NCBI GenBank assembly: GCA_032718475.1
Contig: JAUCBJ010007311.1
Location: forward strand, 49,012-113,011
DNA: 64,000 nucleotides
Direction of reading: 5' to 3'
Source of the DNA: Nemertoderma westbladi
Taxonomy: Eukaryota; Animalia; Xenacoelomorpha
The notes under the pieces are model-generated. The model did not search any database. It was not told the origin of the DNA and saw only the letters and a list, made by a program, of their open reading frames with translations. Positions within the stretch are counted from its first letter, which is position 1. The number at the start of each line of letters is the position of its first letter. Shown in pieces: positions 15,697 to 41,982 of this stretch. Made by a program: the position numbers and the translations under genes.

Positions 15697-16256
15697 TGTG
15701 ACGGGATCTACGGATCCCGGTTTATCCGTTTGGGTTTTCTATCTACGCGTCCCCGCCGTGTATATGAAAAGGTTCGTTAAGAGTTCTGATGTTCGGTAAT
15801 ATGTATAAAGGTATAATAGTCTGATATAGCACAGTTGAAATGGATGACACGGTTACCGGTAGATAAGTACTACATGTGATGGCGGTAGCGGACGGTGATA
15901 GAAGTCACCGTTCCACCCTACTGAGCTGACTGAGTAAACTGAATAACTGATTGCATCGACCGGTAATATATATTGCACGGTTTGGCCTTGTTACAGTACC
16001 TAGTCGATGCTCCCCCCCTGATTGGCTAATATCCCACTTCTCGCCCTTTCACCTTCCCTGGTGTGTTTCCCGTTGCCCCTGTTGTTCTCTCTCTGTTAGG
16101 GGTTTGGCCCCTGACCCTTATTGTGTGTTTCTCCTTCCCACTTTATTGGGGTGACACGAGGTTGATATTGGTAATCAACCTCGTGCTCCCAATATTGCTT
16201 TACGGTTTAATGGCTCACTTTATGGGGTTTGGTGAGGCGGAATTGATTCGCTAACA
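15697..16256 (-). repeat. 3' LTR (type A)
   Basis: Two substitutions seen relative to 32243-32802; directly preceded on the minus strand by the PPT GGGGGGGAG (16257-16265). Confidence 0.96.
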
Positions 16257-16613
16257 CTCCCCCCCATGCTATCTTCCCGGTGAGAAGATAGCATCAACCA
16301 CTAAGTGCGCTTCAATTCCGCTGGAACTCGATCTATTATCGGGTGTGGGGTGGATCTATTTTCTTGGAGTCGGCTTTCCGGGCCGCTCCCTATGGGTATG
16401 ATGTCACTACCCTCTGGCGTCTCGTGTCGGGCCGATCGTGCGCTTCTCTCACACAATTTTTGTTTCCCCAACACTCTCACCACTCTAACTCCGCTCTCTA
16501 ACTCAACTCCCCGGTCTTACTCTCTCCCCACACCTGAATCGCACTCTAACTCTCTCGCCAACGGCTCCTCTCAATCAACCCCGGTATAAACCCCTGTATA
16601 GGGGTTTAATTAC

Positions 16614-17151
16614 TGTGACGGGATCCAGGAAGGATCCCGGTTGTTTAGTTCACGCGTCCCCGCCGTGTGTGAAAGGTAAAAAGAGTTCGTGTCGTTCGTC
16701 GTATATAATAATCGGCTGTACGGGTATATAGATATAGGTATAGATATAGATAATGTTGTCATACACGGAAGGCGGGATACGGTAATTAAAGTCCCGGTCC
16801 TTCCCTAGCTAAACTAACTAACCTAACTAGCACCAATATGATACTGAGATAACTGAACTGAAATGATTACTGCCAACTGGCTATATTGCACGGTTGGCCT
16901 TGTTACTCTACCTAATCGATGCCTTTCCCCCCCCTGATTGGTTGATACCCTTGTTGGCGCCCTTTGGAGTGTTCCCGTTCACTCCACCTGTTCTCTCTTG
17001 GTTAGGGGTTTTGGCCCCTGACCCTCATTGTGTGTTTCTCCTTCCCATTTTGTTGGGGTGGCACGAGTGATTGATTACTCAATCTCGTGGCCCCCAATAT
17101 TGCTTATCGGCTTAACTTTATGGGGTGTTAGCGGGATTGAATAAGCTAACA
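16614..17151 (-). repeat. Internal diverged LTR (type B), 538 bp
   Basis: Same termini as LTR A (TGTGACGGGATC...GCTAACA) and shared internal blocks; has its own PPT (17152-17159). Confidence 0.9.
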
Positions 17152-17891
17152 CTCCCCCCATGCTATCTTCCCGGTGAGAAGATAGCATCCACCTTAAAGT
17201 GCGCTACAATCCCGCTGGATCCCGATCTAGTATCGGGTGTGGGGTGGAATTCTTTTCTCTCGGAGCCGGCTTTCCAGGCCGCTCCCTATGGGTATGACAA
17301 CGCTACCCTGTATGCCTGGCGTCCCATGTCGGGCCGATCGCGCTCACCTCTCACGCGATTTTTGTTTCCCCAACACTTTCGGCCTATCTCTTCTCCACTC
17401 TCACCCTAACTCTCGCATACCCTCGGACCTCCTCGTCCCTCACTCAGCATCTTATTCCTCCCCCTCCACACTAGAATTGCATCCGCACTCTCTCCGCGCT
17501 TCGCACTATCACTCCGTCCCTCAACCCCACTTTGACTATCTCATCCCTTCTGACGAATCTCACCCCCCCTCGCATGCCGTCGCACTCAAGAAGTGTGAAA
17601 TCGTCTGGTGTCTCGTCCATAGTGCCATAGTCAGTTTACCCCCCAGTCCCAGTGGCTAATTGAGAAAGGTTGTATGACTATAGTACTTACTTCGAACATA
17701 TATTTTATTGCTAAACTACTGATTACTACGTACGTACATATAATTACACTTATTTTATTATTTTGCATCAGTTTAATTTGTACTTAATAGTTCGTACGTC
17801 CCACGCGGCGCCTTCCAGGCGTACCACGTCCAAGTCTCAGTTTCTGTCCCCCGGCCCTGGGAACCTATTTGTCCCTCTGGAGATAGTTCCC

Positions 17892-19250
17892 TCAGGCGTC
17901 CTCTTCCCTGGGTCGTTTCTTGGTTATTACCGCTCCTCTGGGATCCGCTTTCTGCTTTCGGACTTTCGCCGCCACCTCCCTGCTGATTCCGGTTGTTGGC
18001 TCCTTGGGCGCTGATGTTATTAGTGCCCGATATCGCTTCGCCGGTGGCCCCTCCGAGTGGCCCTGTTGTCTCCCCCTGGTGGCGTCCCATAGGATCATCT
18101 TCATTGCTCGCGGCACGTGCTCCGCCAAGAAATCCCTAAACTCCCCTCGGTTCTGTGGCGTCCACCTGTCCAAATATCTTTGTGTATTCATCACTCCGGC
18201 ATACGACGCCGCCGTTGCTACCTCTTGATAGGTAAACGGTAGCCTCCGCTTTATGATTTCCATGTGAGCCTCCTGATTGATAAGGAAGAAACCCCACTTG
18301 AACTCCTGGGCCTTCATGCGCTGGCGCGTCATGGCCCTGACGTCGGCCCACTCCTAGAATCTTCTGAACTTCTCTTCGTCGTCCATCCCGTCGCACTGGC
18401 GTCCGTAGTGCCCCCGAAAGTTGCACTTTGGACATCGGTTATGCAACCGTGGACTCGCCCCCATCCTGTGGCTCGACTCTCGGCAGTAGAGACAAAAGGT
18501 TCCCTTTTGGAACCGGTACAAGCAGCTCCTTTCCTGGTGGGTCTGTCTCCCACAGTAGTCGCAACCGAGTACCAATGTCTCCCGCCCCACGTCGTCTTTC
18601 GTCCCAAGCGATCTCCGCGGTCTGTGGAGTCGCTGGTAGGCGAACTTCTGGACGTTAGCGTCCCTGTCTACGTCGATCTCCTCGCCCCTCCCGGGCATCG
18701 TCTCTCCGAATACTACCCATGGTGCCGTCCCCGGTTGCTTGCCCAACCTGATAGTGCTCCCCGCGAAATCCATCGCCGGCTCCTCGTGCACCCAGGTCCG
18801 CTTGCCGGATCTGTCCCAGAAGGCTCTCGCCCCACTGGCCGTCACCACCCTCCCGCCAACCCAGTCCGTGTCCGAGTGGCCTATCCTCTCGATGGGCGGC
18901 ATCTCTCCGAACTCGTCGTCGTCCTCGTCCTCCTCTCGCAGTGGTCCCAACCCCGGTATCCCGGTGGACCCACTATGTCCCTTCCCGCCTTGGTTCTTGC
19001 CCGTAACTCTCCATTCCTCAAGCTCCCCTAGCTTCCTTTGCGGTTGATCGCCCTCGGCGCCCGCTGGTATGGGCATCGCTTGCAATCCCGACGTCGACTG
19101 TCTCGGTGATCCCACCGTCAACCCCAGTTCTTTCCCTAGAGACTCCCCCGAACTCCCTGACGAAGCCCAACGAAGTTCGTCTAAGGTCGTTTGTTCCTCA
19201 AAGCCGTAGCTCTGCGCCCTAGCTTCCTCCTCCCTCTCCTCTGCTTCTCT
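17892..19250 (-). pseudogene. Accessory ORF in the env position with tandem CCHC zinc knuckles, interrupted by stops
   Basis: ORFs 18354..19121 and 17892..18332 share a frame (one TAG between them); knuckles CDYCGRQTHQERSC, degenerate CLYCRESSHRMGAS and CPKCNFRGHYGRQC; frame stays open upstream to a TGA near 19256. Confidence 0.7.
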
Positions 19251-19669
19251 CCTCTCTCACAAGTTTGCCTGCCATCTCGAACTCTGCCCGATCGCTCACC
19301 CGTAGGTGGTGCCTTGCCAAGGCGCAAACGTGATGAGTGATGGGTTTAGGTGGTTTAAGTTCAGTTCGATGGCCTATCTCTTTCTGAATTTCTGAGTTAT
19401 TGCCTATTCTTACTACTGTTACCATAATTTGTTCCCCTTCTTAGCCCTATTCTTATTCTAATTTTTTTTTATTTTAATCCTACTGTCCTATTACTTGCTA
19501 CTGCCTATGGATTATTCTATCTCCTAATCCACATTCTGGCCTACTCTGTGGGCCTGTGCAGTACAGCAGTATATGTCGCGCGGCCTACACGATCTATCCA
19601 ACTGTACTCAAATGCCCCCCTCTCGCTACTAACTGCTAACTAATATCTATATCTTATATACCCTTCTAC

Positions 19670-20230: not shown

Positions 20231-20350
20231 CTACTATGTACTATTATTTTATTTTTATTTTCTAATTTTTTTGTGTGGGGAGGGCGTCTCACCCTCAATC
20301 CCACCCCCCTCAGTCCAAAGCTTGGACGACTAAACTCTACTCTAACTCCA

Positions 20351-23300
20351 CTAAGGTGCCCCTTCTAACAGACAGCATTTCCCTACAGCTCTCCTGTAGG
20401 TTTTTCTGTCCTTCGCACCTATCTTACCACCTATCCGCACTTCTACCGATCGGACTCTTCCGTCCTCATCGGAGTAAGTGCCTACAACTCTCGCCAACCG
20501 CCACTGGTTGTTGATGATAGTATCATCCGTAACGATTACGAGATCTCCCTTTCTTTACTCCCTATTCGGCTTCCTCCATTTGCTTCTTTTATGGAGCGTG
20601 GGTAGGTATTCTTCGACCCACCTCCTCCAATACTCTGCGCTTATTGCTTTTGCGACTTTCCAACTCTGGCGGGAGTGTATGTCGTCTGGATCCACACCCC
20701 GCATGTCGATGGTCGCTGGCCTTTCCATTAGAAAATGGCTAGGCGTCAGCACGTCTAGTGACTCAGGGTCATCATTCTCCTGATATAGCGGTCTGCTATT
20801 AATGATACCCTCACACTTCGCTAGTACTGTTCTCAAGACGTCCTCTGTGACCATGTGGGTGTTCATTAGCTTCGTCATTAGACGCTTTGAACTGCCCACC
20901 AGTCTCTCGACGCATCCTAGTGTATGTGGTGCATACGGCGTCCTTCTCTCCCACTTTACTTGTCGTCGTCTCATGGCCGCCCTGACTTCCTCCCCTTCTA
21001 AGATGTCCAAGGCCTCTGCCATCTCATTCTCTGCCCCCACAAAATTGGTGCCGTTGTCGCTGTATATCACTGCGATCGTCCCACCTTTGCGGTCTCTAAA
21101 CCTTTCTAAAGCATTAATGAATGCTGATGCGGTTGCATCTTGGGCGAGTTCTATCCCTACTGCCCGTGTGTTGTTACATACGAAGATGATACCGTAGCGT
21201 TTCTCCGTGTGCCGCATCACCTTGATCTTTATCGGCCCGAACATGTCCACACCGCAATGCGTAAATGGCGGGTTGTGCTGTCTTACTCTACTCGCTGGTA
21301 GTGGCGCCATCTCTTGTATGGCTCGCTCCTTCTTCGCTCGTCGGCAGGTCTGGCACTGCCCCACGACCGCTTTTACCTTCTTCCTCAACTGTTTGACCCA
21401 AAAGGTCCTCCTTATCTCCGTGAGAGTTCTGTTGGTGCCCCCGTGCAATATCGACTTATGGGAGTCCCAGATAAGCTGGTGGACTATTGGCGATCCTGTG
21501 GGAATGATGATGGGTTTCGGTGGTACGATTATGCTGTTGTTGTATCCCACCCTAGAATTCATTACTAGAATCCCGTCGTCATTAAGTTGTGGCGACAGCG
21601 TGATCAGATCGCTGTCCCGTCGAAGGTGCTGTTGGTTACCGACGCGTTCCACCTCGTCGCCATAGTTCTTCCGTTGTTCATAGCGGATGACTGCCTTGGC
21701 CGCTCCTTCCAGATCTATTGTTGTCCTGATCTTCTTGTCCTTGCCAACTCCCACGAGGAAATTCCCGAAGGCTCTCCAGTACGCCACTAATTTCTTGGTC
21801 TTATACCAACTAGAACTGTAGCTGAGGAGTTTATCCGTCGGGTTATCGCATAGTTCTTGTTTTGGTTGCACGTCCCTAATCTCCCTCACCATCTGGGAGT
21901 ATATCTCTTCTCCCTCTGAATCTCCTTCTTCTCCCTCTGACACTACTTCTGAGCCCGGGTCTACCTTTCTCATCGGCGGCCAGGCCTCCTTATCGCTCAG
22001 AAATTGTGGCCCATGTTGCCACAATACTTCCTTCTTCAAGAAAGTGTGGCGTACCACGCCCCTCGACAACAAGTCCGCTGGGTTCTCGTCTGTTGGGCAG
22101 TAGTGCCACCTTTCCAGTTCTGTGGTCGCCCTTATTTCGTCCACTCTATTTGCGACGAATATCGGGTATCTCGTCCTTTCGTTATGTAGCCAACCAAGCA
22201 CTACCATGGAGTCCGTCCAGTAGTGTGTCTCCACTATGTTGGGAATAGTATCCACTAGGTAGGCTGTGGCTCTAACTCCTAGTCTCGCAGCTGTCAATTC
22301 TAACTTGGGAACTGATGCTGAGCTGAGCTGATGCTGAGCTGTCTCTCTGTTCCACACGATTCCCAATGCCTTCTGTTGAGATTCTGTTCTCTTGTTCGCC
22401 ATGTCCTGCCCTTTGGCTGTTGTGGGATTATCCATGGTCGATTCTGGTCTCTTGTCCTCTATCGCCTTAATAAATTCTTCCGAACTGGATTGGAATTTGG
22501 TCAGGTTAAAGCCGGATCCTTTTAGGATGTCGCAAACCTCGCGCCCTGTGTCCAGTATCTCCTTAACCGTATTTCCAGTCTCCATTCCGTCGTCTACGTA
22601 GAAGCCGCGTCGAATCATATCAACGGCCCTAGTGCTGTATCTATCTTCCTTCCCCTTCACTGTGTCTCTCACTGCCATAGTCGTCGTAAATGAAGACGAC
22701 TTGGCCCCCATGTTTTGTACTACCATCTTATATGCCGGTATTATCGACGGTTCTTCCTCGCCGTTATACCATAAGAAGCGTTGACTGTCGCTATCTTCTT
22801 CCGTTACACGGACTTGGTTGAACATGCCTTCTATGTCACACGTGAAGGCGTGTTTCCCATCCTGAATCTAAGTAGGACCTCTATGCCCGAGTTGTATATG
22901 TTTGGACCTTCTAACAGATAGTCGTTTAGGCATTTTCCGTTGGTCTTTGCCGATGCGTCAACTACCATCCGCAGTTTACCTTTCTTTGGGTTTAGAGCCA
23001 CGTGGAATGGCAGGCACTCCGCCTGCGTCAAGTTTTTTGTTAGTATCTCGTTACTATACATGCGCCGAAACTGTAGATATTCTTCCGGCCTACTCCCATC
23101 GAACTTGAATGGTTACACGGGTGGTAACTCGATCCTCGTTTTCAACGCATCGATCAACGTGGCCATCCCCATCGCCTGTGCTTCCAATGGGTTCGATGGA
23201 TGTTGTATAGTTTCTCCTGTCTGGTGCGGTCCGTCTGTCCTATTTCCACCTCTCCTTTGACTTGGATATGTCATCGGGGGTAGCGGCCCCCTCCATATTT

Positions 23301-25333
23301 CTGTGTCGCACGACCTATTTTCATCCAAGGGTCTCGTTGTTCTTGCTCCTATCGGGGTATATTGTTGATATTGTGATGGGGGAATGTCACCCTGTCCCCC
23401 CCCCACCGGTATGTTTGGTACTGGGGTTGATGTTAATATGTTGGGGCCCATACACCTATCCGCAATAATTCCCCCCTCCCCTGGGTATATGTTATGTCCC
23501 TGCATGCTGTAGTCATACTGCTGTACTGGTACCGGTATAGGCCTATCAGCTTCTGGCCTACTCGCCGGTATGTATTCCGCGACTTCCGGGTTTAATCCCA
23601 TTGTCCGCGCTATCCTATCGCCTACATTGCCTCTCTCAGTATGGCCTATGGTATGTGCAGTAAAGCCTACAGTATGTCCTACAGTCTGCATGTGTCGCTC
23701 GGGATCGAAGTTTATTCTTCTCGAATAATCCTCCCCGCGGCTACCGTATTCTCGATCGGTAGGTACATTCCGTCGGAAAGTTTCTCTTCGACCCCCCTCT
23801 CTACTGTTCTCGTCTTCGTACCGGTACATCGCGTACCCCTCCATCGGCGCGTAATGCGCCTCACCAGGTCGCATCTCTCCGGGGCGACGGCAATCTCCCG
23901 GAGTCCGACCCCACTGACTCTCCGTTCTCATCTCGACTACCGACGGCTCGCTATCCGTCCTCGCTCTTCTATCATTCGCGGCGATACTTCTACTACTGTC
24001 TTCTCTTCTTCTCCTTTCAGTGGAGTATTCCCGCTCGTGAGATCTCTCGTCGACCTCCCGGTTAAACCCCACTGTTCTTCTTCCCTCTTCTGATCGGGCT
24101 CGACGCTTCGTCCGCCCTCTCACGACGTCAACCCGTCCCTCTCCGCTCGGTCGCACGCCGCCGGGGATACTCGCAATCCCCCTATTACTCTCCGTCGCCG
24201 GGTGTTGCGGTTTACCTATTTCGGCCCGCGCATTATCCGCTGACGGCTGTGGGACACTCTCTGCCCCCCCCCCCTTTCGCCGCTAACTCGCTGTTGTGGG
24301 GCCCCTGTAGCCCCCCCCCCCCCACTCGCCACATCTAGCTTCGCTATCTCTCACCCCGCTACTATATCCCTCTCTAGTCGACACATCAACCCTACCGCGG
24401 TCGGGTCTATTCACCCCCGCCTCTCCCTCTGCTATTGCGTGGCCTACCAGGCCCTCTACTCCCTGCCTACCAACTACGTGGCCTACCAGGCCCTCACTGG
24501 GTCTACCCAACCCAGCCGCTCCCTGCCTACCAACTACGTGGCCTACCAGGCCCTCTCTGGGTTGGCTCAATCCCGCCACTTCCGGCCTACCAATTATACG
24601 GCCTACCAGGCCGCCGTCTGCCTGGCCATACACGCCCGACGTGTTCACGTTAATAGCACCCATATTGGAAACGGAATTAATTTGTTCGTTTGAAACAAAA
24701 TCATTTGAATTATTTTGTAAATTCGGGCTTGGATCATTATTTAAATTATTTGAATTATTATTATTTTCTAAATTTAAATTATTATTCGGATTATTTTGCA
24801 CGTTCAAATTGAAATTATTATTTGTATTTAAATTTAAATTACTGCTACTAGGTAAAGTATTATTTGCTGCAATAAAGGTTTGGTTAGAGTTATCCCATAC
24901 GGTACTATTAATATTAACGACGTCTACTGTAGCATTATTGTTATTACCCCCCCCCCCCCCCCCCCCCGCCCGTACGGTCACACCAGTTTTGGGTCTGTCG
25001 TGCGGTCCCTGTAAGTGGGGTATTAATAAATGTATCCACGGCCCCCGGCTCCTCGAAAATACTCGAGCCGGCCCCGCTTTCAGACGCCCCCGCCCGCGCC
25101 AGTTGCGGCTCGCGCGTGCGTCTAATCTTATGCTCCATAAGCTCACTTTGGCGTCTCTCTAATTCTTTTCGCTCACACTCCTCCCTTGCCATTCTCTCCC
25201 TACACTCCCGTTCGCTTTGCTCGGCCAATTCCAACTCTCTTCTAGCTCCCTCCCTTCGTCTCGCCTCACGCTCTCTGCGTTCACCCTCCTCTCTCACCTC
25301 CCGTTCTAACTGTTTCCGCTCTACCGCCGCCAT
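20351..25333 (-). pseudogene. BEL/Pao unit 2: gag N-terminus fused through a deletion to RT, partial RNase H region and integrase
   Basis: Gag ...TQAECL joins RT PFHVALNPKKGKLRMVVDAS at ~23010; stops at 23113 and 20555; frameshift near 22850; second deletion near 22330; integrase has HHCC, GVDMFGP, SDNGTNF and VERLV motifs. Confidence 0.9.
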
Positions 25334-26284
25334 TTCTAATTTATGCTCTAGAAATCAATTAAGTTGTTAGAATTTGAAACGAGATTTAAATTATATATAA
25401 TCTATATATATATATATATTTATTATATTTATTCCCGGTGAGAAGATAGCATCCACCTCAAAGTGCGCTACAATCCCGCTGGATCCCGATCTAGCACCGG
25501 GTGTGGGGTGGAATTCTTTTCTCTCGGAGCCGGCTTTCCAGGCCGCTCCCTATGGGTATGATAATGCTACCCTGTACGCCTGGCGTCCAATGTCGGGCCG
25601 ATCGTGCTCACCTCTCACACGATTTTTGTTTCCCCAACACTTTCGCCCTGACTCTACTCTTCTCTCATACGGACTCTCCTCTCTCCCGCTCTAACTCTCG
25701 GACTTCCTTGTCCCTCACTCAGCCTCTTATTCCTCCCCCCCCCACACTAGAATTGCATCCGCACTCTCTCCGCACTCCGCACTATTGCTCCGTCCCTCTT
25801 TGACTACCTCATCCCTTCTGACGAGTCTCACCCCCCCTCCGTGCCGTCGCACTCAGGAAATGTGAAATCGTCTGGCGTCTCGTCCCTAGTGCCATAGTCA
25901 GTTAGCCCCCCAGTCCCAGTAGCTAATTGAGAAAGGTTGTATGACTGTAGTACTTACACCACTCTCTCCGCACTCCGCACTATCACCTCTCCACTCTCTG
26001 TCACTCCCTAAGGCTTTAATCTCTAATGCTACCTCTGTGCTATCATACTATCTACCTACTACTTACTTACTAACTTCTTATCTAACTAACTCTGCTAACT
26101 ACTAACTCTTACTACTTCTAGCTCTAACTGAGAGCCTCTAACTTTCTACTGACTCTTACTTTCTACTAAGTCTAACTAACTCCTACTAACTCTCTACTTC
26201 TACTAATTCTACTTGACTCCTCTGAGTCTACCAACTCTCTAGCCCTTTAACTAGAACTCCCTAACTCTACTCACTCTTCTAACC

Positions 26285-26890
26285 ACGTGGCGCTTGCGGT
26301 GCCCACAACCACTCTACTATCTGGCACCCTATGTGCCCTTCTACTACTCAACTACCTCTGTAACTCTACTACCTGGCACCCTATGTGCCCTCTCTACTAC
26401 CTCTACCCTATCTCTAACTTACTTCCTTTATATCTACTCCCTTTACGTCTACTCGCCTACACGTGACGCTCTGAATGCCGGCAGAGTGGGTACGTTAATT
26501 ATGTGAACTACTACTAACTCTTACTAACTCTACTAACTCTCTACTAACTCAACTAACTCTACTACTAACTCTCTACAAACTCAACTAACACTCTAACTCT
26601 ACTACCTGGCACCCTATGTGCCCTCTCTACTACTCTACTCTCTGGCACCATATGTGCCCGTCTCTACTACTCTACTCTATCTACATCTCCACCTCAACTA
26701 ATACCTCTATCTACGTGGCGCTTGCGGTGCCCACAACCACTCTCTCCTACTACTTTCTACGTGGCGCTTCCGGTGCCCACGACCCCCCTACTACTACTTT
26801 CTACGTGGCGCTTCCGGTGCCCACGACCCCCCTACTACTACTTTCTATGTGGCGCTTCCGGTGCCCACGACCCCCCTACTACTACTCGTG
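26285..26890. repeat. Short tandem and dispersed repeats (GTGGCGCTTCCGGTGCCCACGACCCCCCTACTACTAC and CTAAC-rich tracts) in the 3' non-coding part of unit 1
   Basis: Directly visible. Confidence 0.75.
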
Positions 26891-27062
26891 GCATGACAAT
26901 ATGCCACACTCCCTTACCCCGCCACCTTCTAACTTAACTCTACTTACTATTATTTTAATTATTTAATTATTTATTAATATTTATTTAAATTAAATAATTA
27001 ATTTTTGTGGGAAGGGCGTCTCGCCCTCATTCCCACCCCCCTCAGTCCAAAACCTTGGACGA

Positions 27063-30000
27063 CTAAACTCTAAGGTGCCCCTTCTTCCAGTTGGCACACT
27101 CCCACTGCCCTCCTATATGTCCTCTTACTCTTTGCCACACCCTCTTCGCCAATTCCACCTGACCAGGGATTGGCTCTCCCCCTTTCACCACCCCAAGGTT
27201 GGGTCTCTCCATCGTCTTCTTAACTAGCTCGTCTCCTGGCATCAAAATGCCACCTCTCTCCTTGTTGTCTCCCGCCGGCAGAATGAATAGAAAGTGAAAG
27301 AACAGGCAGAACAGTAGGTACAATAGTAGTCCTATCCCTTTCCGTCCTGCCTTCCTTCTCGACTTCCCCCTTGTCGGTATGCCCCCAAACCGGACCTGCG
27401 TCTCTTCCGGACACTCCTCTGGACACTCCCCCGGACTATTGTCCTCCTGACACTCCACCGGACACTCCTCCGGAGTGTTGTCCCCCGGACACCCCACCGT
27501 CCGCTCCCTTCCATCCCCACACCGACACCCGCTGGGAAGTCTATTATCCTCCGCCCACTCTCTTATTGTTACTTTCCTGTCTGGCTCTACTATCTCCTCC
27601 GGCTTCTTATCTTCGTCCTCTGTGTCTGCGGTGCCTGGTAACATGCACCCAGATGTCTCTGTCACACTGCATGGGATGTTGGTTTTAACTGGGCCGCTAA
27701 GCGTCCATCCGAACGGCGTGAGGATCGCCGTCGGATCCCGCTGCCTGTCTTCGCCGAAGACCGTCTTCGTTCTCTCGTGGGCCGTCGGGCAGTCCATCCC
27801 TACTATAATGGACACCTTCCTAACGTCCACCTTTGGTATTGAGAAATCGATACCGTCCAGGAATCTATATTGTTCGACCTCAATGTTGGTTGGTCGCCTG
27901 GCGTTGATGTTTATCGATTCTATGACGTGGATGGGGTCGATCGTCGCCCCATAGTCGTATCCCGGTGCAATCGCTGCTATCCTGCACCGCCCCGCCCTCG
28001 TCTCCAGGACCTCATCTTTACTCGAGACGGTAGTCACCGCCATTCTATTCGGCCTTGTCTTTAGCCCTATCTCTTCGGCCACCCAGTTCTCCACCAGCGT
28101 GAAGGCTGCTCCGCTGTCGACCAGCATTAATGTCGTTACTGATCGACCGCCCTCTCCTGATATCTTTACTGGTACTACCCCGAGTAGTACTTTTCTCTTC
28201 TTCTCCTCTTCTGTCGTGCTTGTGGCCATTGCCTGGCCTCCAGTCTCGGACTCTCTAACTGCTGTCTCTCTACACTCTCCGGATCTGTGTCCTTCTACCA
28301 CACATCGATGACATAGTCCGTTTGCGTCTGTGTAGGCTATACGATCTTGTTTGGGCAACGCTTGCCAGTGCTTACAACTCCTGGTCTTATGTGTTCCATC
28401 CCGATGTAATTGACATTCGAATCCTGGATTATAGCGTTCCCTGTATAGTCCTTCACGTATCGCGCGTAGGTTTATATGTACCGATTTAGTGTTTTGGTTG
28501 TCTGTACTCGGCCTACTGGGTATATTGGGATTATGTTTATTTATGGTGTTATTTTTTTTCTGTCCCTGCCACGGTGTGGCCCTGCTACCAGCTAACTGTG
28601 GACTAGCAGTCCCCTGTGTGGCCGCATGTGGTAGTGATTGTCCTACTCTCGGGAATGGATCTGCAGGATCGTGTTCGGGTTTATGGCTTGTCCCCAAACT
28701 ATCCTCGCTATAGACTGGGTCTGTTATTAATTCGGCTTCATAGTTGAGGAAGCTCGACATCTCTTCTAAGCCCGGTTCCGCACCCTTCTTCTCCCGTGTG
28801 GAGAAGGCTATCTTCCTCCACTTCCTTCGTAACCAGATCGGCAGTGCCTGCGCTATCGTGGTGATGTTGTTAGACGCGTTGAGTTCGTATGGTGCGTCTA
28901 GCGTCTTTAACACGATTAACGCCTTCTCGACCTTGTTTGCAAAGGTCCTTATGCTAACGGGATTGTCCTGTAGGCCATCCGATGTTATGCCTCTCAGGGT
29001 TTGCCGGATGATCTTGGCCGGGTGCCCGTATTCCCTATCTAGCGCCCGCCATGCTGTCGTGAAGCCGCCCTCGATGCCCTGGTATTGCCTCACGATGTCG
29101 TATGCTGGGCCTCCTGTATATACTTGCAGATATTTTAGGCACTCCGCCTGCGTCAAGTTCTTACTTAATATTTCGTTACTATACATGCGCCGAAACTGTA
29201 GATATTCTTCCGGCCTACTCCCATCGAATTTAAATGGTTCCACAGGTGGTAACTCGATCCTAGTTTTTAACGCATCGATCAATGTGGCCATTCCCATCGC
29301 TTGCGCTTCTAATGGGTTCGATGGATGTTGTATAGTTTCTCCTGTTGGGTGCGGTCCGTCCGTCCTATCTGTTGTTGTCCTTTGCGTCGGATATATCATT
29401 GGGGGTAACGGCCCCCTCCATATTTCCGTGTCGCATGATCTGTTCTCGTCCAAGGGGTTCGATGTTCTCGCTCCTATTGGGGTATATTGTTGATATTGTG
29501 ATGGGGGAATGTCACCCTGTCCCCCTCCCACCGGTATGTTTGGTACTGGGGTTGATGTTAATATATTGGGGCCCATACATCTATCTGCAATAATTCCCCC
29601 CTCCCCTGGATATATGTTGTGTCCCTGGAAATTATAGTCATGCTGCTGTACCGGTACCGATATAGGCCTATTCACTTCTTGCCTACCTACCGGTATGTAC
29701 TCCGCGACTTCCGGGTTTAATCCCGTCGTCCGCGCTACCCTATCGCCTACTCTATCTCTCCCAGCATGGCCTATAATAGTATGTGCAGTAAGGCCTACAG
29801 TATGTCCTGCAGTCTGCATGTGCCCTTCCGAATCGAAGTTTATTCTTCGCGAATCTCGAATCTCCCCGCGACTACCGTACTCTCGATCGGCAGCTATATC
29901 CCGTCGGGAAGCTTCTCTTCGATCCCCATTCCTGTTCTCTTCTTCGTATCGGTACGTCCTGTACCCCTCTCTTGGTGTGCGGTGCGTTTCTCCGGGGCGA

Positions 30001-32183
30001 CGGCAATCTCCCGAAGTTCGACCCCACTGACTCCCTACCTCCATCTCTACTATCGACGGCTCGCTATCCGTCCTCGCTCTCCGGTTGCTCCTAGCAACGA
30101 CTCTTCTATTATCTTCCTTTCTTCTCTCTTCGACCTCTCGGTTAAACTCTACTAATCTTCTTCTATCTTCGACCTCTCTATTAAACTCTACTAATCTTCT
30201 CTCTTCTGACTGGGCTCGACGTTCCGTCGCCCGCCCTCTCGCGACGTCAACCTGTCTCTCTCTGCTCGATCGCACGCCGCTGGGGATACTCGCAATCCCC
30301 CTATTACTCTCCGTCGCCGGGTGTTGCGGTTTACCTAATTCGGCCCGCGCATTATCCGCCGACGCCTGTGGGACACTCTCTGCCCCCCCTCTCTCGCTAC
30401 TAATCCCTCGCGGTGGGGTGCCCGTAGCCCCCCCCCCCCACCCGCTACTTCTAACTTCACTATCTCTTACTACACTTCTGCGTCCCTCTTGTCGGACACT
30501 CTCTACCCCCTTTCTCTCGCCACTAATCTTCTGTGGTGGGGCGCCCGTAGCCCCCCCCCCCACCCGCCACTTCTAACTTCACTACCTCTTACTACACTTC
30601 TACACCCCTCTTGTGGGGCATTCTCTGCCCCCCCTCTCTCGCCGCTAATCTCATGTGGTGGGGCGCCCGTAGCCCCCCCCCACCCGCCACATCTAACTTC
30701 AATATCTCTTACTTCGTCTCTACACCCCTCTCTAGTCGACACACTGTCTCTACTGCGGCCGGGTCTATTCACCCCCGCCTCTCTCTCTACTACTGCGTGG
30801 CCTACCAGGCCCACCTCGGGTTGGCTCAACTGCGCCACTTCCTGCCTACTAACTACGTGGCCTACCAGGCCGCCGTCTGCCGGGCTATACACGTCTGACG
30901 CGTTCACATTAATAGCACCATTCCCAATATTATTCGTTAAGTCAATTAAATTATTAGAATTTGAAACGGGATTATTATTTAAATTATTTAAGTTAGAATT
31001 ATTATTATTTTCAAAATTTAAATTGCTATTCGAATTATTTGAATTATTTTGATTATTCTGAATATTTGAATTAATATTATTATTTGAATTTAAACTTAAA
31101 TTACTACTACCGGGTAAAATATTTCCTGTAATAAAGGGATTAGGGTTATTTACTACGGTACTATTAATACCAATATTTCCTAACGCACTACTACTACCCC
31201 CCCCCCCCCCCCCCGCCCGTACGGTTACTGTATGTACTGTACGTGTACCGCACGCTCTGTTCTCTTGCCTCACGCTCTTCGCGTTCACTCTCTTGCTCCT
31301 TCCTTCTCCCCATTATCCACTCTAATTTCTCTCTAGTTCTCTCTAATATCTCTCTAGTTTTTAATTCATACGCTGCCAGATTTATCTCCTGCACCCTTCT
31401 TTCTTTTGCGGAGGATGTAGCAGACTTATCGGTTGCGACGGACTCCCGCCGCCCCTCCGTCCTACTAACTTTCCCCCGCTTTCCGGGGTCCTCACTGACC
31501 GACGAGGCCGAATCCTCGGAGCTAACCTCGGATTCGCCCTCGTGCGGTCCCGCCCAACCCACTAACTTAACTTCCCTGGCATCGACTAAGTATGGCCCTA
31601 TGTACACTACACCAGGCCCCATACCCCTACGTTCCCATAGCCCAAACAGTTCGAAGGCAACCCCTCTCGCTCTCTCCTCGGCCAGTTCTCCCTGCCCAGA
31701 ACGCACTAGGTAATCAAAGTATCTGTTCGACTCACCTAGTCGTCTCCTCAACTTCACCTGGTCTATCTCAGCCCCTCCTCTAGCTTCCTTCAGTTGTTCC
31801 CGGGTCGCGGCGTAGGCTCGTCGAAGTCGATCAGAAACCCCGACATCCTCATCGCCGACCTCTCCTCCATCTCTCCGGGTCCGACGTCGTACCGACGGCC
31901 CCACCGTCGCCGTTCCGGTGGACCGTTCGTCGTCCTCGGCCTGTGGCTGGCCGGCGACATCGGTACGTCGACCCTCGCTCCGCGTCGACTCGTCTTTCTC
32001 CCTTTCGACTCCCGACTCGTCTCTTCCTTCTCGTTGTAGACGGCCCCCCTCCGTTTGGATTGCCGGATCGTCTGTAGTTGACGGATCCGGCGTCGTGGGT
32101 CGATGCCGTCTCGCCGCGGCCTCGCGGATCGTTAGGTTGTCGTCCGGGGTCCACGGCGGTGTCGTCTCTCCTATTCGGCTCAT
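27063..32183 (-). CDS. BEL/Pao unit 1: Gag-protease polyprotein with a hydrophobic C-terminal tail, no RT or integrase; frame breaks at or near poly-G runs
   Basis: ORFs 31194..32183, 30503..31288 and 27063..30563; DUF1759-like LPPVEPFKFDG; zinc knuckles CQLH...H...C and CHRC...H...C; aspartic protease LVDSGA. Confidence 0.85.
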
Positions 32184-32242
32184 CTTTGTCTTTGGTGGCT
32201 GGCAGCCACAGTCTGTCAGTTGGTTGGATCTAGTTCTATCAC

Positions 32243-32802
32243 TGTGACGGGATCTACGGATCCCGGTTTATCCGTTTGGGTTTTCTATCTACGCGTCCCC
32301 GCCGTGTATATGAAAAGGTTCGTTAAGAGTTCTGATGTTCGGTAATATGTATAAAGGTATAATAGTCTGATATAGCACAGTTGAAATGGATGACACGGTT
32401 ACCGGTAGATAAGTACTACATGTGATGGCGGTAGCGGACGGTGATAGAAGTCACCGTTCCACCCTACTGAGCTGACTGAGTAAACTGAATAACTGATTGC
32501 ATCGACCGGTAATATATATTGCACGGTTTGGCCTTGTTACAGTACCTAATCGATGCTCCCCCCCTGATTGGCTAATATCCCACTTCTCGCCCTTTCACCT
32601 TCCCTGGTGTGTTTCCCGTTGCCCCTGTTGTTCTCTCTCTGTTAGGGGTTTGGCCCCTGACCCTTATTGTGTGTTTCTCCTTCCCACTTTATTGGGGTGA
32701 CATGAGGTTGATATTGGTAATCAACCTCGTGCTCCCAATATTGCTTTACGGTTTAATGGCTCACTTTATGGGGTTTGGTGAGGCGGAATTGATTCGCTAA
32801 CA
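32243..32802 (-). repeat. 5' LTR (type A)
   Basis: Direct repeat of 15697-16256, upstream of the gag ATG at 32183; TATA-like AATATATATT at 32511-32520. Confidence 0.96.
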
Positions 32803-33207
32803 GTTTGCTGTTTATGCCGATACGGTAACGGCCTGTTTTACCATGTTGGGTTACGTTAGTTTTAGTTTTAGCTAAGTTTTAGTTAGGCAAGGCCATAATT
32901 GACTTGGGTTGACCTTAGCTATTCACGCTAACGCTAATGCTACACGTAAGTGCTCATGCTAATGCTAACACTACACGTAAGTGCCCACACTAACGCTAAT
33001 GCTACACGTAAGTGCTCACACTAACGCTGTCGCTACTTTATGTTGTGTTGTTTTATAGAGTGCCTGATGCTTGATTGTGATGTTTTAGATAGGCACTACT
33101 TGATTGTTTTCTATTTTCTATTTTATGCTTGTTAAATTACTGTTAGGTCAAATAATACGGTATTTAGGCTGTTTCTAGCATAACCCAGTAGCGTAATTAA
33201 TTAGTAT

Positions 33208-35820
33208 TACTACTACTACTACTAGGTCGAGCGAACTCGGACAGTGGAAATGAGATCCTTCCAGGCTTCCCGATTCTCCATAGTTGTCGCAATTTCGTTT
33301 CTCCCAAGTTCAGTATCCCTTTCAAGTTGATCTATATATGTTATGGCAGGTCGTCCACGACCACGCTTTCCATGAGTTGGTTGCCAGAGAAGTAGACCTG
33401 GTATGACCTCGTCTTTACTTCGCCAGCAGTGCCCACTGAATCTTAATCTGCGTTCACAGAGGGTGGTTGATACAGGTGGTATTGTACCATAAAGCTCGGC
33501 GTTTGTCATATGTTGTCTCCAGCTAATGTTTAGGGCTGCCCTTAGTAGTCTTGTGTAGCAAGCATCAATTCGTTGTGGGGCGAGCCACGAAGTTGGCGGA
33601 GCCTTAGCGAATTGACACTGTTAGGGGGTGGGTCAATTTATGCAAATAGTTGTCGTCGTCGTCGTTGTCGTCGTCGTCATCGTTACGATTTTGACATGCT
33701 AATAACTTTGTCGGATTTAAAGCTGCCAAGTTGAAAATTTATAGGTATCAATATGAGCAAAAGTTGAGATTTTTGAAAGACTTTCAGACACCATCAGTGC
33801 AATGGTCTCCCGCTAGAGGGCCACATGTCTAAACATTAAATGCCCTCCCATTTCTTTGCTTTTAATCCGTTTAAGCTGAAACTTGGCAGATATGTATTAG
33901 ACCATTAGCTGTGACTTTCAAAGGAGGCGAATCCATCTGCAGTTCTCCAGTCTGCCGCTAGAGGGCCAAAGGTCTGAAAGTGAAATCGTTGTCGTCGTTA
34001 CGATTTTGACATGCTAATAACTTTGTCGGATTTAAAGCTGCCAAGTTGAAAATTTGTAGGTATCAATATGAGCAAAAGTTGAGATTTTTGAGAGACTTTC
34101 AGACACCATCAGTGCAATGGTCTCCCGCTAGAGGGCCACATGTCTAAACATTAAATGCCCTCCCATTTCTTTGCTTTTAATCCGTTTAAGCTGAAACTTG
34201 GCAGATATGTATTAGACCATTAGCTGTGACTTTCAAAGGAGGCGAATCCATCTGCAGTTCTCCAGTCTGCCGCTAGAGGGCCAAATGTCTGAAAGTGAAA
34301 TCGTTGTCGTCGTTATGATATTGACATGCTTATAACTTTGTCGAATTTAAAGCTGCCAAGTTGAAAATTTGTTTTGTTGAAAATCAGTTCAACAGTCACC
34401 CGCTATAGGACTACTTTATGCCTGAAAGTGAATAGATTCTCCCGTCTCATTGATTTTAATCAGTTTAAGCTGAATCTTGCCATATATTCTGGACCACATG
34501 CTGCGTCTTTGTGGGGGGGGGGGGGGGGGGACATTTAATCGGTCTGCCGCTATACGACGAAATTTCTGAAAGTGAGATCCGTCTCTCATTTCGTTATCCG
34601 TTATTCAAGATGAAACTTGGCCGATGTACGTATGTACTATTCATCCATAGGCTGTGTCTTTGTGGGGCTGGAGACCCTAATCCATCTTCAGTTCTCACTA
34701 TACCGCTAGAGTCAGAAATGTCTGAATAGAAATGAAAGAGGTAAAAAGTGATTAGGCGAAATCTGCTTAAAATTTGCTAATACAGTAATACTTTCGAATT
34801 AGTACTTAAATTAAATTTAAGTCACGTGCTGCGCGAAGGCCCCACTTCGTGTTCAAGTGATTTAGTCAGTGTCCAGGTCTCACCCCCGTATAAAAATACA
34901 CTTTCCACTGTGGCTCGAAAGAACTTAGTCTTCAGGTGCCTGGAGAGATCTGATTTCCAGATGGTATCCATTTTTGATAGAGCTACCCAAGCCTTTGCTT
35001 TCCTAACTTCTATGTCCTTTTTGCTACTCTCTATCCATGATCCAAGGTACTGGAAGTCATCGACCTTCCTTAGTTGATTATTATCAATGGTTGTCAAGTT
35101 TCCATCAACATTAAAGGTCATGAATTCGGTGTTGGTAGCATTTATATGCAATCCAACCTCCTTAGCAGCCCTCTCCACTTTATTTAGTAGAAGGTGTGCA
35201 TCTGCTAGCGTATTAGAGAGCAGGGCGATGTCATCCGCAAAGTCGGTGTCTGTGACTGTAGTTGCCGGATATCTACTACTTCTGCGTTCTTGAAGTGTGA
35301 ATCCCAGATCTTCACCCTTTGTGGCCGTCCTCATTGCGTAATCCAGCACAATTACAAATAGTAATAGTGCTAATGTGTCACCTTGTAGTACGCCAGCCAG
35401 GATTGCGAAAAACGCAGTTTCACCAGCTGGTGAGAGTACCTGCGCTTCTGTGTCACAATATAACAATCCAATGCCAGCAACAATTACTTCTGGTATTCCA
35501 TAAGCTCTTAGGATTTCAAGCATTTTACCTCTATGGATAGAGTTGAATGCCTTCTTGAAGTCCACAAAAGTCATGACTGCGGGGAGATTCTTTGATTTAA
35601 TTCCTTCAATCAGTCTCCGTAGTGCAAGTATCTGAGCTATTGTTGATCTACTTGGTCGAAATCCGTTTTGGCTCTTACGCAGTAGTTTCTCTATGTGAGG
35701 CCTAATCCTATATAGAATCATTTTATTGTATATTTTGGCAGCTACCACAAGCAGACAGATCCCACGATAGTTTGTTGGTATGCCGAGGTCTCCTTTCTTG
35801 GGAAGAGGCTTTAGTTGACC
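33208..35820 (-). mobile_element. 5'-truncated RTE LINE (family A), interrupted by a TGT-bounded element
   Basis: RT ORF 34822..35748 (QNGFR, DFKKAF, GVLQGD, DFADD) continues into 33222..33573; (TAG)n tail. Confidence 0.92.
33574..34852 (+). mobile_element. Non-autonomous TGT-bounded element, copy 2, with a (GTC)n tract and ~3 internal 315-bp tandem repeats
   Basis: Boundaries are exact because the uninterrupted target CAATTCGTTGTTCAAG is present in the RTE copy at ~2032-2047; internal repeats start near 33683, 33998 and 34313. Confidence 0.88.
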
Positions 35821-37514
35821 TTTGTAATTAGTATTACAAATTCTGGAATATCTAATAATTAGTATGCAAACCCGTATGTCTGAGAAATTGTAGTTTACGC
35901 TAGCGCTTAGAATAAATATTAAGAGTTTGTACGCTGCATAGCAGATAATAGTTTTGGTTAAATTACGTTTAGGAAATACTTTAGAATATTAAACGCTAGG
36001 CGGTTATCTAAAAATAGTGGGTCAGCAGGTTAGCAGTGGTAGTGGGCGCAGCGAAGCAGTAAAATCGCTGACTACATTCAGCATAAGGTCAATAAGCCAC
36101 TACTACTACTAGGATCGGCATGCTGCATTGCAGCTGCATTTTTAAGAATGCTGTGCCGGTTTGTCGACAAAATTGCGCCGCCACAACTCCCTATCACCCA
36201 TGACATTTGCTAGATCATCCGCATCTTTAAGGCCAGTGTCCTTTAAGATGCGTCTCAAGAAAGTCATGGGCTGTCCACCATGCTTATTTACTCCATGAGG
36301 CTGCCAAAGTACAAGATTATGCACTGGCTGGTCCTCACGGCGAAAGCAATGTCCTGCAAAGCGGAGGCGATTTTGTTCTAGTGTCAAGCTTGGGGGAACC
36401 AATGAGACACCTCCAATGTTATATAGTGTCTGGTTGGAGATGTGTGCATTGTACTTGACACAATGTACCCGGCGTAGCATTCTTGTGAATGTGCCATCCA
36501 GAGATTTGGTGTCCTCAGCAGTTAGAGCCCAGCATGGACTCCCGTAGAGGAGTACTGGAACTACTGCTGCTCTAAATAATCGGACCTTAAGTTTCCGATT
36601 AATTCTAGGTGACTTCCAAATCCTGGAAAGCCTATTCAAGGCTGCCCATGCCTTTCCCTTACGTATTCGAAGGTCCTCACCTGACTTCCGGATCCATGAT
36701 CCCAGGTAACAGAAATCGTCCACATGCTCAAGCATACCATCCTTTGAGCTTATGCTCATCCAATCAGAGACTTGCTGAGGACTTTCAAAGTTAACTGTCA
36801 AAATTTTGGTCTTTCTGGAGTTAATAAAAAGACCAACACTAGAAGCAGCATGTTCTAATGAGCCGAGGAGCCGCTGGGCTCCCTCTAATGATTCTGAGAG
36901 TACTCCTAAGTCATCAGCAAAGTCTAGATCAGTTATGTACTTGGCAGGATTTCCTCGACTTCTGGAGCCAGTAGGTGGAGTTATCATCACCCCATCATCA
37001 TTATGGTGATCTAAGGACATGCGTAGAATATAGTCAACCACAATTATGAACAAGAATGGTTCAAGTGTGTCTCCCTGGAGGACGCCCCATAACACCTCAA
37101 ATCGTTCTGTGTCACCATCAACAGTAGACACAAATGTTGTCGAACCATGTATACTGATCTGATTGCTGCTATAATTTCATCAGGAATCCCATATAATGAA
37201 AGTATGCTGAACATACGTGAGCGAGAGCCTGAATCAAAGGCATTGAAGAAGTCAACAAAGATAACAGCCAGATGCCTGTCTTTCTTTTTTGATAACTCTT
37301 CAATTATCCTTCTAAGTGCCAAAATGGGCTCCATGGTCCCACGACCTTTACGGAACCCATTCTGATTTCCACGGACCAGTCTCTCAATGGGATCCCTGAT
37401 GCGATTTAATAGAATTCTATTGTATAGATTTACAGCAATTGAGATCAATGAGATTCCCCGAAAAGACCATAGAGTGTTAGGTTGCCCTTCTTGGGAACTG
37501 GCACCAACTTATTT

Positions 37515-40500
37515 ATAAACACATATTTATATGTATAATCACAGTACGATAAGCTGTAGGCCTGCCGACAATAAGACCAAGAAAGATACCGGTACTAGGC
37601 CTATACAGTTTTTATCCCTGAATCAGACTACAGCCAGACAGCACAATGTCCCCGCTCTTAATCTCCACAGTTTTCATCGTTCTGGGTCGTTTCGTTGTGG
37701 CAGAACCATCCGATCCGCGGGGTAACCCTGCAACCCACCCAATACCCGTATTGGACTGGTTTGCGGAACACCCTGTCGCTACCGTTTCGAACTGCCGCGC
37801 CGAATCGACGGAGATGTGGTCGACGAGTGGATTTAGCCTCTACTGCTCTCGTCGGGGAAGAAGATCTTGGGTCTCCTCTCCACGATCTAGAGGCCTAATC
37901 GCTAAACTTTGTCTTCTGTCTCTGGCTGGGGATATTGAGACCAACCCAGGACCCAGCAGGACGCGGGCCCCGAAGATCAACTGTCCCGTCTGTCAACGAG
38001 GAACAAACTCTCGGAGTAAGATCGTCCAATGCGAGAGTTGTGACACATTTGTACATTTAAAATGTTACCGTAGGAAACGCAGTAATTTATTCTCCACCAG
38101 AAACAATCTTGAACCAAGTTTTCTCTGCAATAGCTGTATTTTTACCGAACTTCCCTTTCATGATACAATTTTAGAATCAGAAACCGACGATTCATTTCTC
38201 ACATCGCCTCTGCAAACTCCAAGTGATGCTGAGAGTGAAACTTTTAATTTTTTTAAGAAAAAAGGTCTGCATTTTTTGCATTTAAACGCACGATCTCTGC
38301 TTCCAAAACTTTCCGAAATTCGTATTTTAATCAATAAATCCAACCCAGCAGTTTTAACAATCTCTGAAACTTGGCTCGATGATAGTGTTTCTGATGGAGA
38401 AATTTATATTGATAATTACGTAGTTTTACGTAAGGATAGGGACAGACACGGTGGTGGTGTCTGTACTTACATTCGATGTGATTTAGCTTTTAATCGTAGG
38501 GAAGATTTAGAGACTTGTGACGAAGTTTTACTGGTGGAACTTTTACTTCCTAAAACTAAACCTATTTTAATCGGTACTTTATATCGGCCCCCTAAACAAT
38601 CAGATTTTTTGCAAAATTTTGAAAATACAATTTTATGTAATCTTAGGTCAGACTGTGAAATATATTTCTTAGGTGATTTTAATATCTGTTACCATCACAA
38701 AGCATCCCCCATCTGTAAACAGTACCAAAGTATTTTAAATTTGTTTGGTTTAAAACAAATTATTCGAGATTCTACCAGAATTACCAGTAAAACTTCTACT
38801 TTACTAGATCACATCCTTTGTAATAATACCGATATTATTTCTCAATCTGGGGTTTTACCTATAGGTCTAAGCGATCATTTTATAGTTTTTTGCACAAGAA
38901 AGACACAAAAATCTTTTTTCGGGGATCATAAAACAGTAACAGTTAGGTCTATGAAAAATTACAGCAAGGAACGCTTTTTAAGTTTGTTAGTTAATTCTGA
39001 CTGGGAACCCTGTTTTAAGGCCGCTGACATTAACCTTGCGTACACTGTTTTTAAAGATATATTTTTAAAGGCACTTAATACTGTAGCACCAATTAAAGAA
39101 ATTAGTCTTAAACAACGCACTGAGCCCTGGATGACCTCGGGTATTCTTAGTAATATCAGAGAAAGAGATAACTATTTGTATAAATTTAGGAAATACCGTG
39201 TTTTAGCTGATTATAATAATTACTGCAAATATAGAAACCTTGTCCAACGGGAAATAAAAAAAGCGAAATCTGAATATTTGTACAACAAAATAAGTGAGAA
39301 TAAAGATAATCCTAAAAGTCTATGGTCTACCCTAATATCTTTAGGTTATAAAAACCTTAAATCTAAATCGAATATTGTTCTGCAAGATAACGGTGAGCTG
39401 ATTCATGATCATACTCTAGTTAGTAATTTATTTAATAATTATTTTACTAATGTTTCCTCTAATTTAGCTAAGAAGTTACCGTTATCAAGTAATAAATATA
39501 GTATAGGGTCCGAAACTCTAAATAATTTTTATTTAGAAAAGTTACAAAATTCAGAAAAGTTATTTTTAAAACCCGTTTCTGAGGATTTCGTTTTTAAAAA
39601 TCTACTTAGCCTATCAGCCTCAAAAAGTACCGGTCTAGACCTAATACCTGCCCGTTTTCTTAAGGATGGTGCTGAAGTACTTAAAGTGCCTATTACTTTT
39701 ATTATTAATTACTCTATCGTAGATAATGTAGTACCAGACGAACTGAAATTAGCTAAGGTTGTTCCTCTGTATAAAAAGAATAGTAAAGTAGAACCCTGTA
39801 ATTACAGACCTGTTAGTATCTTAAGTATTGTATCTAAAATTTTAGAACGTTCTGTTTTTCTACAGCTGGAAGCACATCTTAGTAGGCTAAATCTGATCTA
39901 TGAACTTCAGTCCGGTTTTCGTAAATCATATTCTACAGACACCTGCCTTATTAACTTAACTGATACAATTAGATGTAATAACGCAAAGGGTTTATATACT
40001 GGTATGGTAATGTTGGACCTACAAAAGGCTTTCGATACTGTAGATCACGAAATTCTGCTTGGTAAGTTAGGCCTGATGGGTGTAGGTTCTATAGACTGGT
40101 TCAAGTCCTACCTGTCAGACAGAGGTCAAACTGTAGTCATTAGCAAATCGCTGTCTACTGTACAAGAGATTACCTGTGGTGTACCGCAAGGTAGTATATT
40201 AGGTCCTCTGCTTTTTGTATGCTATGTAAATGATATTATAAGTAGTATAGATCCCGATTTTAAACTCATTTTATATGCCGACGACAGTGCTCTTATTTTC
40301 TCTCATAAAGATCATATCCATATTTCCCAAAAGTTAAGTGCAGTTCTAGAATCCTGTAATGAGTGGTTGGTTGATAATAAGCTATCCATTCACTACGGTA
40401 AAACTGAAAGTATTTTGTTTGGTTCCAAAAGAAAGTTAAAGAAGGTAACTAAGTTTGAAGTCACTAGTAATGGACATAAGATTGAAAATAAAAAGGAAGT

Positions 40501-41470: not shown

Positions 41471-41982
41471 TATTTGTTTTCATTTCTTGTGGGACTCTTG
41501 TTGTTCGGTACATGTCTACTTTGATGGGATAGATGAGCTTTAAACACTCGGGTATTTTAAAGACCTCAGGGGGAACACCATCTAGTCCACTGGCACGATT
41601 TGTCTTAATGCTCTTTGCAGCAGCCTTCACTTCTGCAAAGGAGATATCGCCAATGGGAATATTTGGGAGTACAGACTCAAACACTTTTACTTCTATAAAG
41701 TTATCAGGCAATACCCTGTCATCTTTTCAAAGTATATTTCAAAGCATAGCGGATAATAGTTTTGGTTAAATTACGTTTAGGAAATACTTTAGAATATTAA
41801 ACGCTAGGCGGTTATCTAAAAATAGTGGGTCAGCAGGTTAGCAGTGGTAGTGGGCGCAGCGAAGCAGTAAAATCGCCGACTACATTCAGCATAAGGTCAA
41901 TAAGCCGGGGCAAATAATATCCTGTCCCTTTGCAATATTAAAATATTCTCACATTCGACATTGTTTGCCTCGTCCTGACATC

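Follow-up and report, generated by a model that had tools for sequence, protein, structure and literature searches.

BEL/Pao elements make up one of the three big superfamilies of LTR retrotransposons of animals. The element Cer7 of C. elegans has reportedly been proposed to encode its own tRNA-like primer. BEL/Pao replication has been described as "poorly understood", and the ICTV account of the family (Belpaoviridae) gives it an 18-nt primer site for a host tRNA 3' end (PMC8742986). Published work has demonstrated self-priming in Tf1 and has inferred it in Tj1, the Tf1/sushi group, Tcn1 and TAR copia (PMC4600332, PMC10085805, PMC5341516, PMC6317226). Tf1/Tf2 of S. pombe, Tj1 and the Tf1/sushi group of Ty3/gypsy chromoviruses have no tRNA site; their primer site, next to the 5' LTR, is the complement of a stretch of the LTR of the same element, and duplexes may form on its flanks (PMC4600332, PMC10085805, PMC5341516). 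Tf1 is reported to require such flanking duplexes around the primer duplex (PMC10085805). For the plant elements Tcn1 (gypsy) and TAR/Houba/Osr-1 (copia), self-priming was predicted from complementarity between the word after the LTR and the LTR itself, and the trait arose in more than one superfamily (PMC6317226). Fungal GalEa copia elements (PMC5445492) and bivalve TRIMs (PMC6934838) also have no canonical primer site.

For BEL/Pao itself, a term search returned no mention of PBS or tRNA in the accessible parts of three surveys (PMC554778, PMC3118150, PMC6238403), and the available portions of six further papers (PMC3601003, PMC6934838, PMC5445492, PMC3286476, PMC8220671, PMC7472051) contain no self-priming in this superfamily. 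The same is true of the titles and abstract openings searched, a scope that lies outside most subscription papers, Repbase reports, GyDB pages and supplements, so that a prior remark is possible. An earlier note on this DNA knew of no description of self-priming for BEL/Pao, in agreement with this literature.

The window, by which we mean the whole 64,000-nt stretch of Nemertoderma westbladi DNA that was analysed, contains a BEL/Pao insertion of 17.1 kb on the minus strand (32802-15697), bounded on both sides by the 5-bp target duplication CAAAC (Table 1). The two LTR-A copies differ at two positions and have TG..CA ends. The insertion is compound, with the order LTR-A, gag-protease, 3' UTR, second gag-pol, extra frames, 3' UTR, purine tract, LTR-B, a 357-bp non-coding segment, purine tract and LTR-A. 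Since the LTRs are nearly identical and the target duplication is present, this copy was probably reverse transcribed and integrated recently. The copy is broken and non-autonomous, and would have been mobilised by the proteins of an intact relative.

Table 1. Positions of features of the BEL/Pao insertion and its primer region in the window
Feature	Position	Strand	Remarks
5' LTR-A, 560 bp, TG..CA	32243..32802	-	558/560 identity to 15697-16256
Target-site duplication, 5 bp	32803..32807	.	partner 15692-15696
Promoter-like motifs	32484..32571	-	CCAAT 32571-32567, TATA-like 32518-32511, initiator-like TCAGT 32496 and 32488
Candidate self-primer of LTR-A	32441..32449	-	exact complement of 32234-32242; 3' LTR copy 15895-15903
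Arm directly 3' of candidate primer	32427..32440	-	predicted pairing with 32294-32303
Conserved G+C block, partner of arm	32294..32303	-	17/18 identical A vs B over block
Second copy (7 nt) of part of primer-binding word, in U5	32283..32289	-	competes for candidate primer in predicted A fold
U5 hairpin, 5 nt before LTR end	32248..32265	-	7 bp in A, 8 bp in B, loops differ
Primer-binding position of LTR-A, 9 nt	32234..32242	-	no spacer, no TGG
First open frame past leader	31194..32267	-	no Pfam match
Gag-protease frame, first copy	27063..30572	-	DUF1759, aspartyl protease; most of pol missing downstream
3' UTR, first copy	25432..25957	-	ends just short of purine tract; no LTR after
Second gag-pol copy, diverged, broken, internal deletions	20555..24981	-	71-83% identity to first copy where overlapping
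RT with YVDD, Pao A17 remnant, integrase, DUF5641	20555-22867	-	within second gag-pol copy
Extra sense frames downstream of pol, Cys/His-rich	17892..19256	-	weak zf-CCHC_5 match (E 0.11)
Purine tract adjoining LTR-B	17152..17159	-	
LTR-B, internal, 538 bp	16614..17151	-	399/489 aligned bases identical to LTR-A
Candidate self-primer of LTR-B	16782..16790	-	complement of 16605-16613
Primer-binding position after LTR-B, 9 nt	16605..16613	-	no spacer
Short non-coding segment	16257..16604	-	palindrome, 3' UTR copy and purine tract
Purine tract adjoining 3' LTR-A	16265-16257	-	
3' LTR-A	15697..16256	-	near-identical to 5' LTR-A

The BEL/Pao identity proposed in the earlier note agrees with the domain search. 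DUF1759, aspartyl protease, integrase H2C2 and DUF5641 score above the cut-off, Peptidase_A17 and rve score below it, and the YVDD motif is present. PF05380 occurs in all of the 120 best long homologs listed, and the nearest proteins found have 27-37% identity to the element. Judged from its sequence, the domain content and gypsy-like order assign the element to BEL/Pao (Belpaoviridae). It resembles the ICTV description of the family in gag-pol domain content and order, LTR size and purine tract, but lacks the 18-nt tRNA site given there (PMC8742986). The TG..CA ends, the short target duplication and the purine tract are those of BEL/Pao LTRs, and the purine tracts abut both LTR types with no spacer, as had been noted before. 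No chromodomain family matched the element in Pfam, and in this it departs from the Tf1/sushi group; it works like that group but is not a member, its superfamily being different from that of Tf1.

Some other traits of the insertion may be recorded here. The extra frames after pol contain three Cys/His clusters with one stop between them and are not env-like by Pfam. Tandem repeats after pol differ between the two copies (19659-20210 versus 26138-26886). The stretch 16257-17151 on the minus strand, with LTR-B, primer word, 357-bp segment, purine tract and LTR-A, resembles a miniature (TRIM-like) tandem unit; a palindrome of 20 nt extends over the end of the primer word after LTR-B, in competition with the duplex. 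In four DNA runs from three samples, the summed depth of contigs over the LTR and leader reaches thousands, and the unique flank has 10-21 in three of the runs; as summed contig depth is no copy number, we read this only as repeated.

The 5' LTR-A is followed directly by the word GTGATAGAA, the exact complement of which lies 198 nt inside the same LTR, and LTR-B is followed directly by a different word, GTAATTAAA, which also has its complement in its own LTR. A primer site beside the LTR end and complementary to the element's own LTR is an arrangement shared with Tf1-type self-priming. The positions reported earlier for both words and both complements are exact. No TGG follows either LTR directly, and none occurs within 33 nt of the LTR-A end (the first is 34 nt on) or within 44 nt of the LTR-B end; the tRNA 3'-end primer site of the ICTV description is not found. 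When the LTRs alone are aligned, the two partners fall in the same nine columns, with six of nine positions identical and with GAC and CGT flanking both. All three differences between A and B are compensated between primer site and LTR partner, as the earlier note had observed, and the 9-mer of one LTR does not pair beyond five bases with the other LTR. Within the window this covariation comprises two LTRs. The duplex ends at the LTR edge. This edge is known without recourse to the pairing, from the target duplication and the near-identical LTRs, so that the junction was present at the recent insertion.

Of the 63,992 9-mers in the window, 144 and 128 (about 0.002) have their exact complement somewhere within a single LTR, and with a free spacer of 0-5 nt a 9-bp match was reached in 0 of 200 shuffled LTRs for A and 4 of 200 for B. 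When the LTR end is also left free, the 9 bp of LTR-A alone are not significant (8 of 40 shuffles); the weight of the LTR-A match therefore comes from the fixed LTR end together with LTR-B. Scanning loosely for complements that follow any CA gave too much noise for a count. The survey that predicted self-priming in Tcn1 and TAR/Houba/Osr-1, which are plant elements, needed at least 10 bp, and would miss the 9 bp of the window (PMC6317226). GalEa and the bivalve TRIMs differ in another way: their hairpin lies in the internal region, and the GalEa authors found no LTR complement (PMC5445492, PMC6934838).

The LTR-B arrangement claimed earlier stands as regards the pairing but not as regards its setting, since LTR-B, rather than heading a coding element as its 5' LTR, is internal to the compound insertion, with a purine tract before it and the 357-bp non-coding segment after it. 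The 9-mer of LTR-B was either captured as a copy of a primer end or is the primer site belonging to a short tandem unit; either way the implied pairing is the same. Contigs from two samples in two studies track LTR-B through base 16605 and then continue in unlike sequence (seven contigs in X1 and three in X2, agreement 0.56 and 0.62), and one X2 contig has a depth of 886 against 16 at the unique flank. This comparison had no cover at 16560-16599 and 16720-16810, and 16718-16810 was skipped as repeats. It hints that other copies have the LTR-B word in common, but not the leader. The exact LTR pattern had 0 matches in metagenome contigs, and alignment of pol against viral contigs gave 391 stretches, none confirmed as a relative.

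A host RNA such as a tRNA half, a CCA-less tRNA, a spliced-leader or another small RNA could prime instead, with the LTR match as a by-product. Several copia lineages are described as priming with half-tRNAs (PMC6317226) and ICTV describes Belpaoviridae as tRNA-primed (PMC8742986), but a host RNA would be needed for each of the two different words, both of which also match their own LTR at the same columns, and more than ten further different words in relatives (below) each match their own LTR as well. We regard this explanation as very unlikely. The window has no tRNA gene, and 15600-33000 has no Rfam match at E values up to 1; from these two results, no element-encoded tRNA-like primer is seen.

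In predicted RNA structures, the arm directly 3' of the candidate primer and the G+C block form a duplex of -16.5 kcal/mol in A, and the homologous pair in B has -18.3. The 9-bp duplex has an energy of -10.0 kcal/mol in A and -5.0 in B. In A its pair probability is 0.00-0.01 across all 15 settings of start and temperature and it never appears in the most stable fold, while in B it belongs to the most stable fold only with 5-10 nt of leader included (0.94-0.95). Forcing the duplex costs 5.7 (A) and 8.3 (B) kcal/mol with 40 nt of leader. Since the duplex falls outside the most stable fold, annealing would probably be aided by Gag or RT. Flanking helices, namely the U5 hairpin and the stem behind the primer, are possible in both LTRs according to these models; in the pretzel of Tf1 the primer site is flanked by a duplex on either side, of which only the upstream one, here the U5 hairpin, is predicted in both LTRs, in addition to the stem behind the primer.

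These structures bear on a second alternative, in which the 9-bp pairing is a conserved leader helix (a packaging signal, or a translation or polyadenylation switch) and something nearby primes. The duplex is weak, other helices are kept in both LTRs, and the LTR-A segment has an alternative partner in U5, which is switch-like. Against such a helix, no TGG lies within 33 nt (LTR-A) or 44 nt (LTR-B) of the LTR end, the pairing starts at the first base past the LTR in both LTRs and within 0-4 nt of it in relatives, which is the position required of a primer end, and it is absent at the junction of relatives of the TGG type. We consider a leader helix rather unlikely, if less so than a host RNA.

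The LTRs also contain CCAAT, TATA-like and initiator-like motifs, which we take to be promoter-like from their consensus, and all are retained in both LTRs. The initiator-like A lies 31-32 nt from the TATA-like motif and 37 nt (LTR-A) or 64 nt (LTR-B) upstream of the 9-mer, in agreement with the caveat of the earlier note that the primer may be internal. Given a predicted start upstream of the partner, the primer would be internal, a difference from Tf1, whose primer is at the RNA 5' end. A strict Tf1 kind, with the RNA starting at the first base of the 9-mer and a 5'-terminal primer, shares the evidence of our preferred explanation and takes a small share of the probability, a little above that of the leader helix. 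In its favour, LTR-A and LTR-B both have a duplex of exactly 9 bp that directly follows a conserved GAC, and the promoter motifs are consensus matches only; but the three motif types kept in both LTRs put the start upstream, and there is no TATA-like word 30 nt before the 9-mer.

The pairing, its flush position, the three compensatory changes and the lack of TGG are present in the sequence. From these features we think it likely that the element self-primes reverse transcription from an internal, not 5'-terminal, segment of its LTR; about a fifth of that confidence allows for a 5'-terminal primer. The RNA would start some 37 nt (A) or 64 nt (B) before the segment, which would anneal to the primer site in place of a tRNA for minus-strand synthesis. 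The RNA would be cut after ...AC, most likely by the RT/RNase H of the element, as reported for Tf1, and RT would extend the new 3' end across U5. The part of the LTR upstream would be regained from the copy in the 3' LTR. When the primer end is copied in plus-strand synthesis, the primer site would be rewritten, by which the two words could stay matched. The primer RNA may be used in cis or in trans.

In order to find relatives, metagenome contigs were scanned with the pol alignment, which gave the best 80 of 564 confirmed loci. The 36 of these that have sequence upstream of gag were taken further; two were too short, leaving 34 that were scanned with the LTR end free. Self-complementarity at the primer site, in different letters, occurs in at least 14 of the 34. 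In 11 of them (L010, L017, L026, L029, L032, L033, L037, L046, L048, L061/L062, L080) the word that begins 0-3 nt past an LTR-type end has a complement of 10-15 bp that exists only across a GT-AG junction in the LTR just upstream of gag (0-4 of 40 shuffles each), the end of the donor exon being joined to the bases after a YAG/AAG acceptor, with predicted introns of 76-426 nt. Three more have 11 unbroken bp (0-1 of 40 shuffles), and L070, the upstream part of which is off the contig, has 9 unbroken bp (1 of 40). The paired word begins 0-4 nt past the LTR end in these self-complementary relatives. At the junction of the nine leaders labelled by eye as TGG type there is neither a spliced nor an unbroken signal, and the remaining ten leaders are cut short or could not be classed. 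Several loci share a small number of assemblies and do not represent independent hosts; L061/L062 belong to a single family and enter the count once. The reading of the earlier note, that this lineage would self-prime, gains support from this recurrence.

Where the LTR end could be set by the divergence between the two LTRs, the spliced complement measures 15 bp in L017, 12 in L029, 11 in L061 and 11 in L026 (0, 0, 0 and 5 of 200 shuffles) and the unbroken one 11 bp in L024 (2 of 200), and the TGG-type L002 and L042, with LTR ends set in the same way, have no complement. Donors read GTAAG in 9 of the 11 spliced loci, though the scan required GT[AG] only; we take this to be the splice consensus. 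The GT-AG introns in the LTRs of relatives are predicted from these patterns. A 10-bp spliced match of L041 at an inner site was reached in 14 of 40 shuffles and was not counted. Further 10-bp unbroken matches at other sites occur in L032, L033 and L079, and the LTRs of L024 and L026 seem to end in TA, not CA.

Unlike Tf1, these BEL/Pao relatives would have a primer that spans a predicted splice junction, while the LTRs of the window have the unbroken form; distant relatives use the same position, spliced in 11 of 34. No GT-AG join of at least 10 bp exists in LTR-A or LTR-B. A non-canonical GT..AC excision (32545-32450) would lengthen the A duplex to 12 bp with the 5' LTR or 13 bp with the 3' LTR copy, and its donor-like block is retained in LTR-B, but given the 9-mer this extension was reached by 301 and 39 of 1000 shuffles, the acceptor is AC, and the site is outside the six best donor-like sites of A. 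None of the eight joints listed for DNA contigs skips 32545-32450, and the predicted promoter lies inside the excised stretch. As the extension is not significant in shuffles, splicing of the window primer by this route was rejected, and we give it hardly any weight. Returning to the internal primer, we lean slightly towards a wider proposal: a large part of BEL/Pao would be tRNA-independent, with an internal primer from the LTR transcript. In many families the host would assemble this primer by splicing out an LTR intron, which would let the spliceosome license replication, and this lineage and others would use an intron-less version.

A tree was built from 56 rows and 883 columns (38 loci, 17 proteins and the window) by a quick method with no bootstrap, and without named references for the BEL/Pao clades (Pao, BEL, Tas, Suzu, Sinbad/Sailor, Dan, Flow). 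Seven TGG-type loci cluster with insect elements, apart from a group of 37 rows in which all 15 of the self-complementary loci fall together with three more TGG-type loci; the labels require three changes. L003 (unbroken) and L032 (with intron) are sisters. The pol of the window, with 36% identity at most, is a long branch (1.67) outside both groups, and its placement with the TGG-type and insect elements is not rejected by the AU test (p 0.50). Given this branch and test, the relatives establish that BEL/Pao has the trait, but not its inheritance from the same ancestor. The three TGG-type junctions nested among self-complementary elements (L065, L075, L077; read by eye, LTR ends not fixed) possibly represent a return to tRNA priming.

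If the reading is correct, tRNA-independent priming would have arisen once more here, from a primer that is internal and not 5'-terminal, and this would account for such elements lacking a recognisable primer site in annotation tools. The elements would also be beyond silencing by tRNA 3' fragments, and in the relatives reverse transcription would depend on splicing by the host. The reading predicts exact RNA ends, which lend themselves to direct testing.

Other features surround the insertion. A host gene resembling Apollo/DCLRE1B (50901-53825, minus strand) consists of one long frame with an in-frame 36-bp repeat in about 27 copies (a 12-residue unit), and has at most 46% identity to any match found. 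An inverted repeat of 452 bp (97%; 36099-36548 and 41981-42432) lies around non-LTR RT frames in opposite orientation, among them a PHD-endonuclease-RT frame at 37622-41143. Fragments of non-LTR RT occur several times at 13211-14737, 34822-37176 and 56270-63722, and large tandem arrays occupy 13-1290, 2486-5267, 9980-11601 and 46804-48940, with units of 36, 25, 66/69 and 34 bp.
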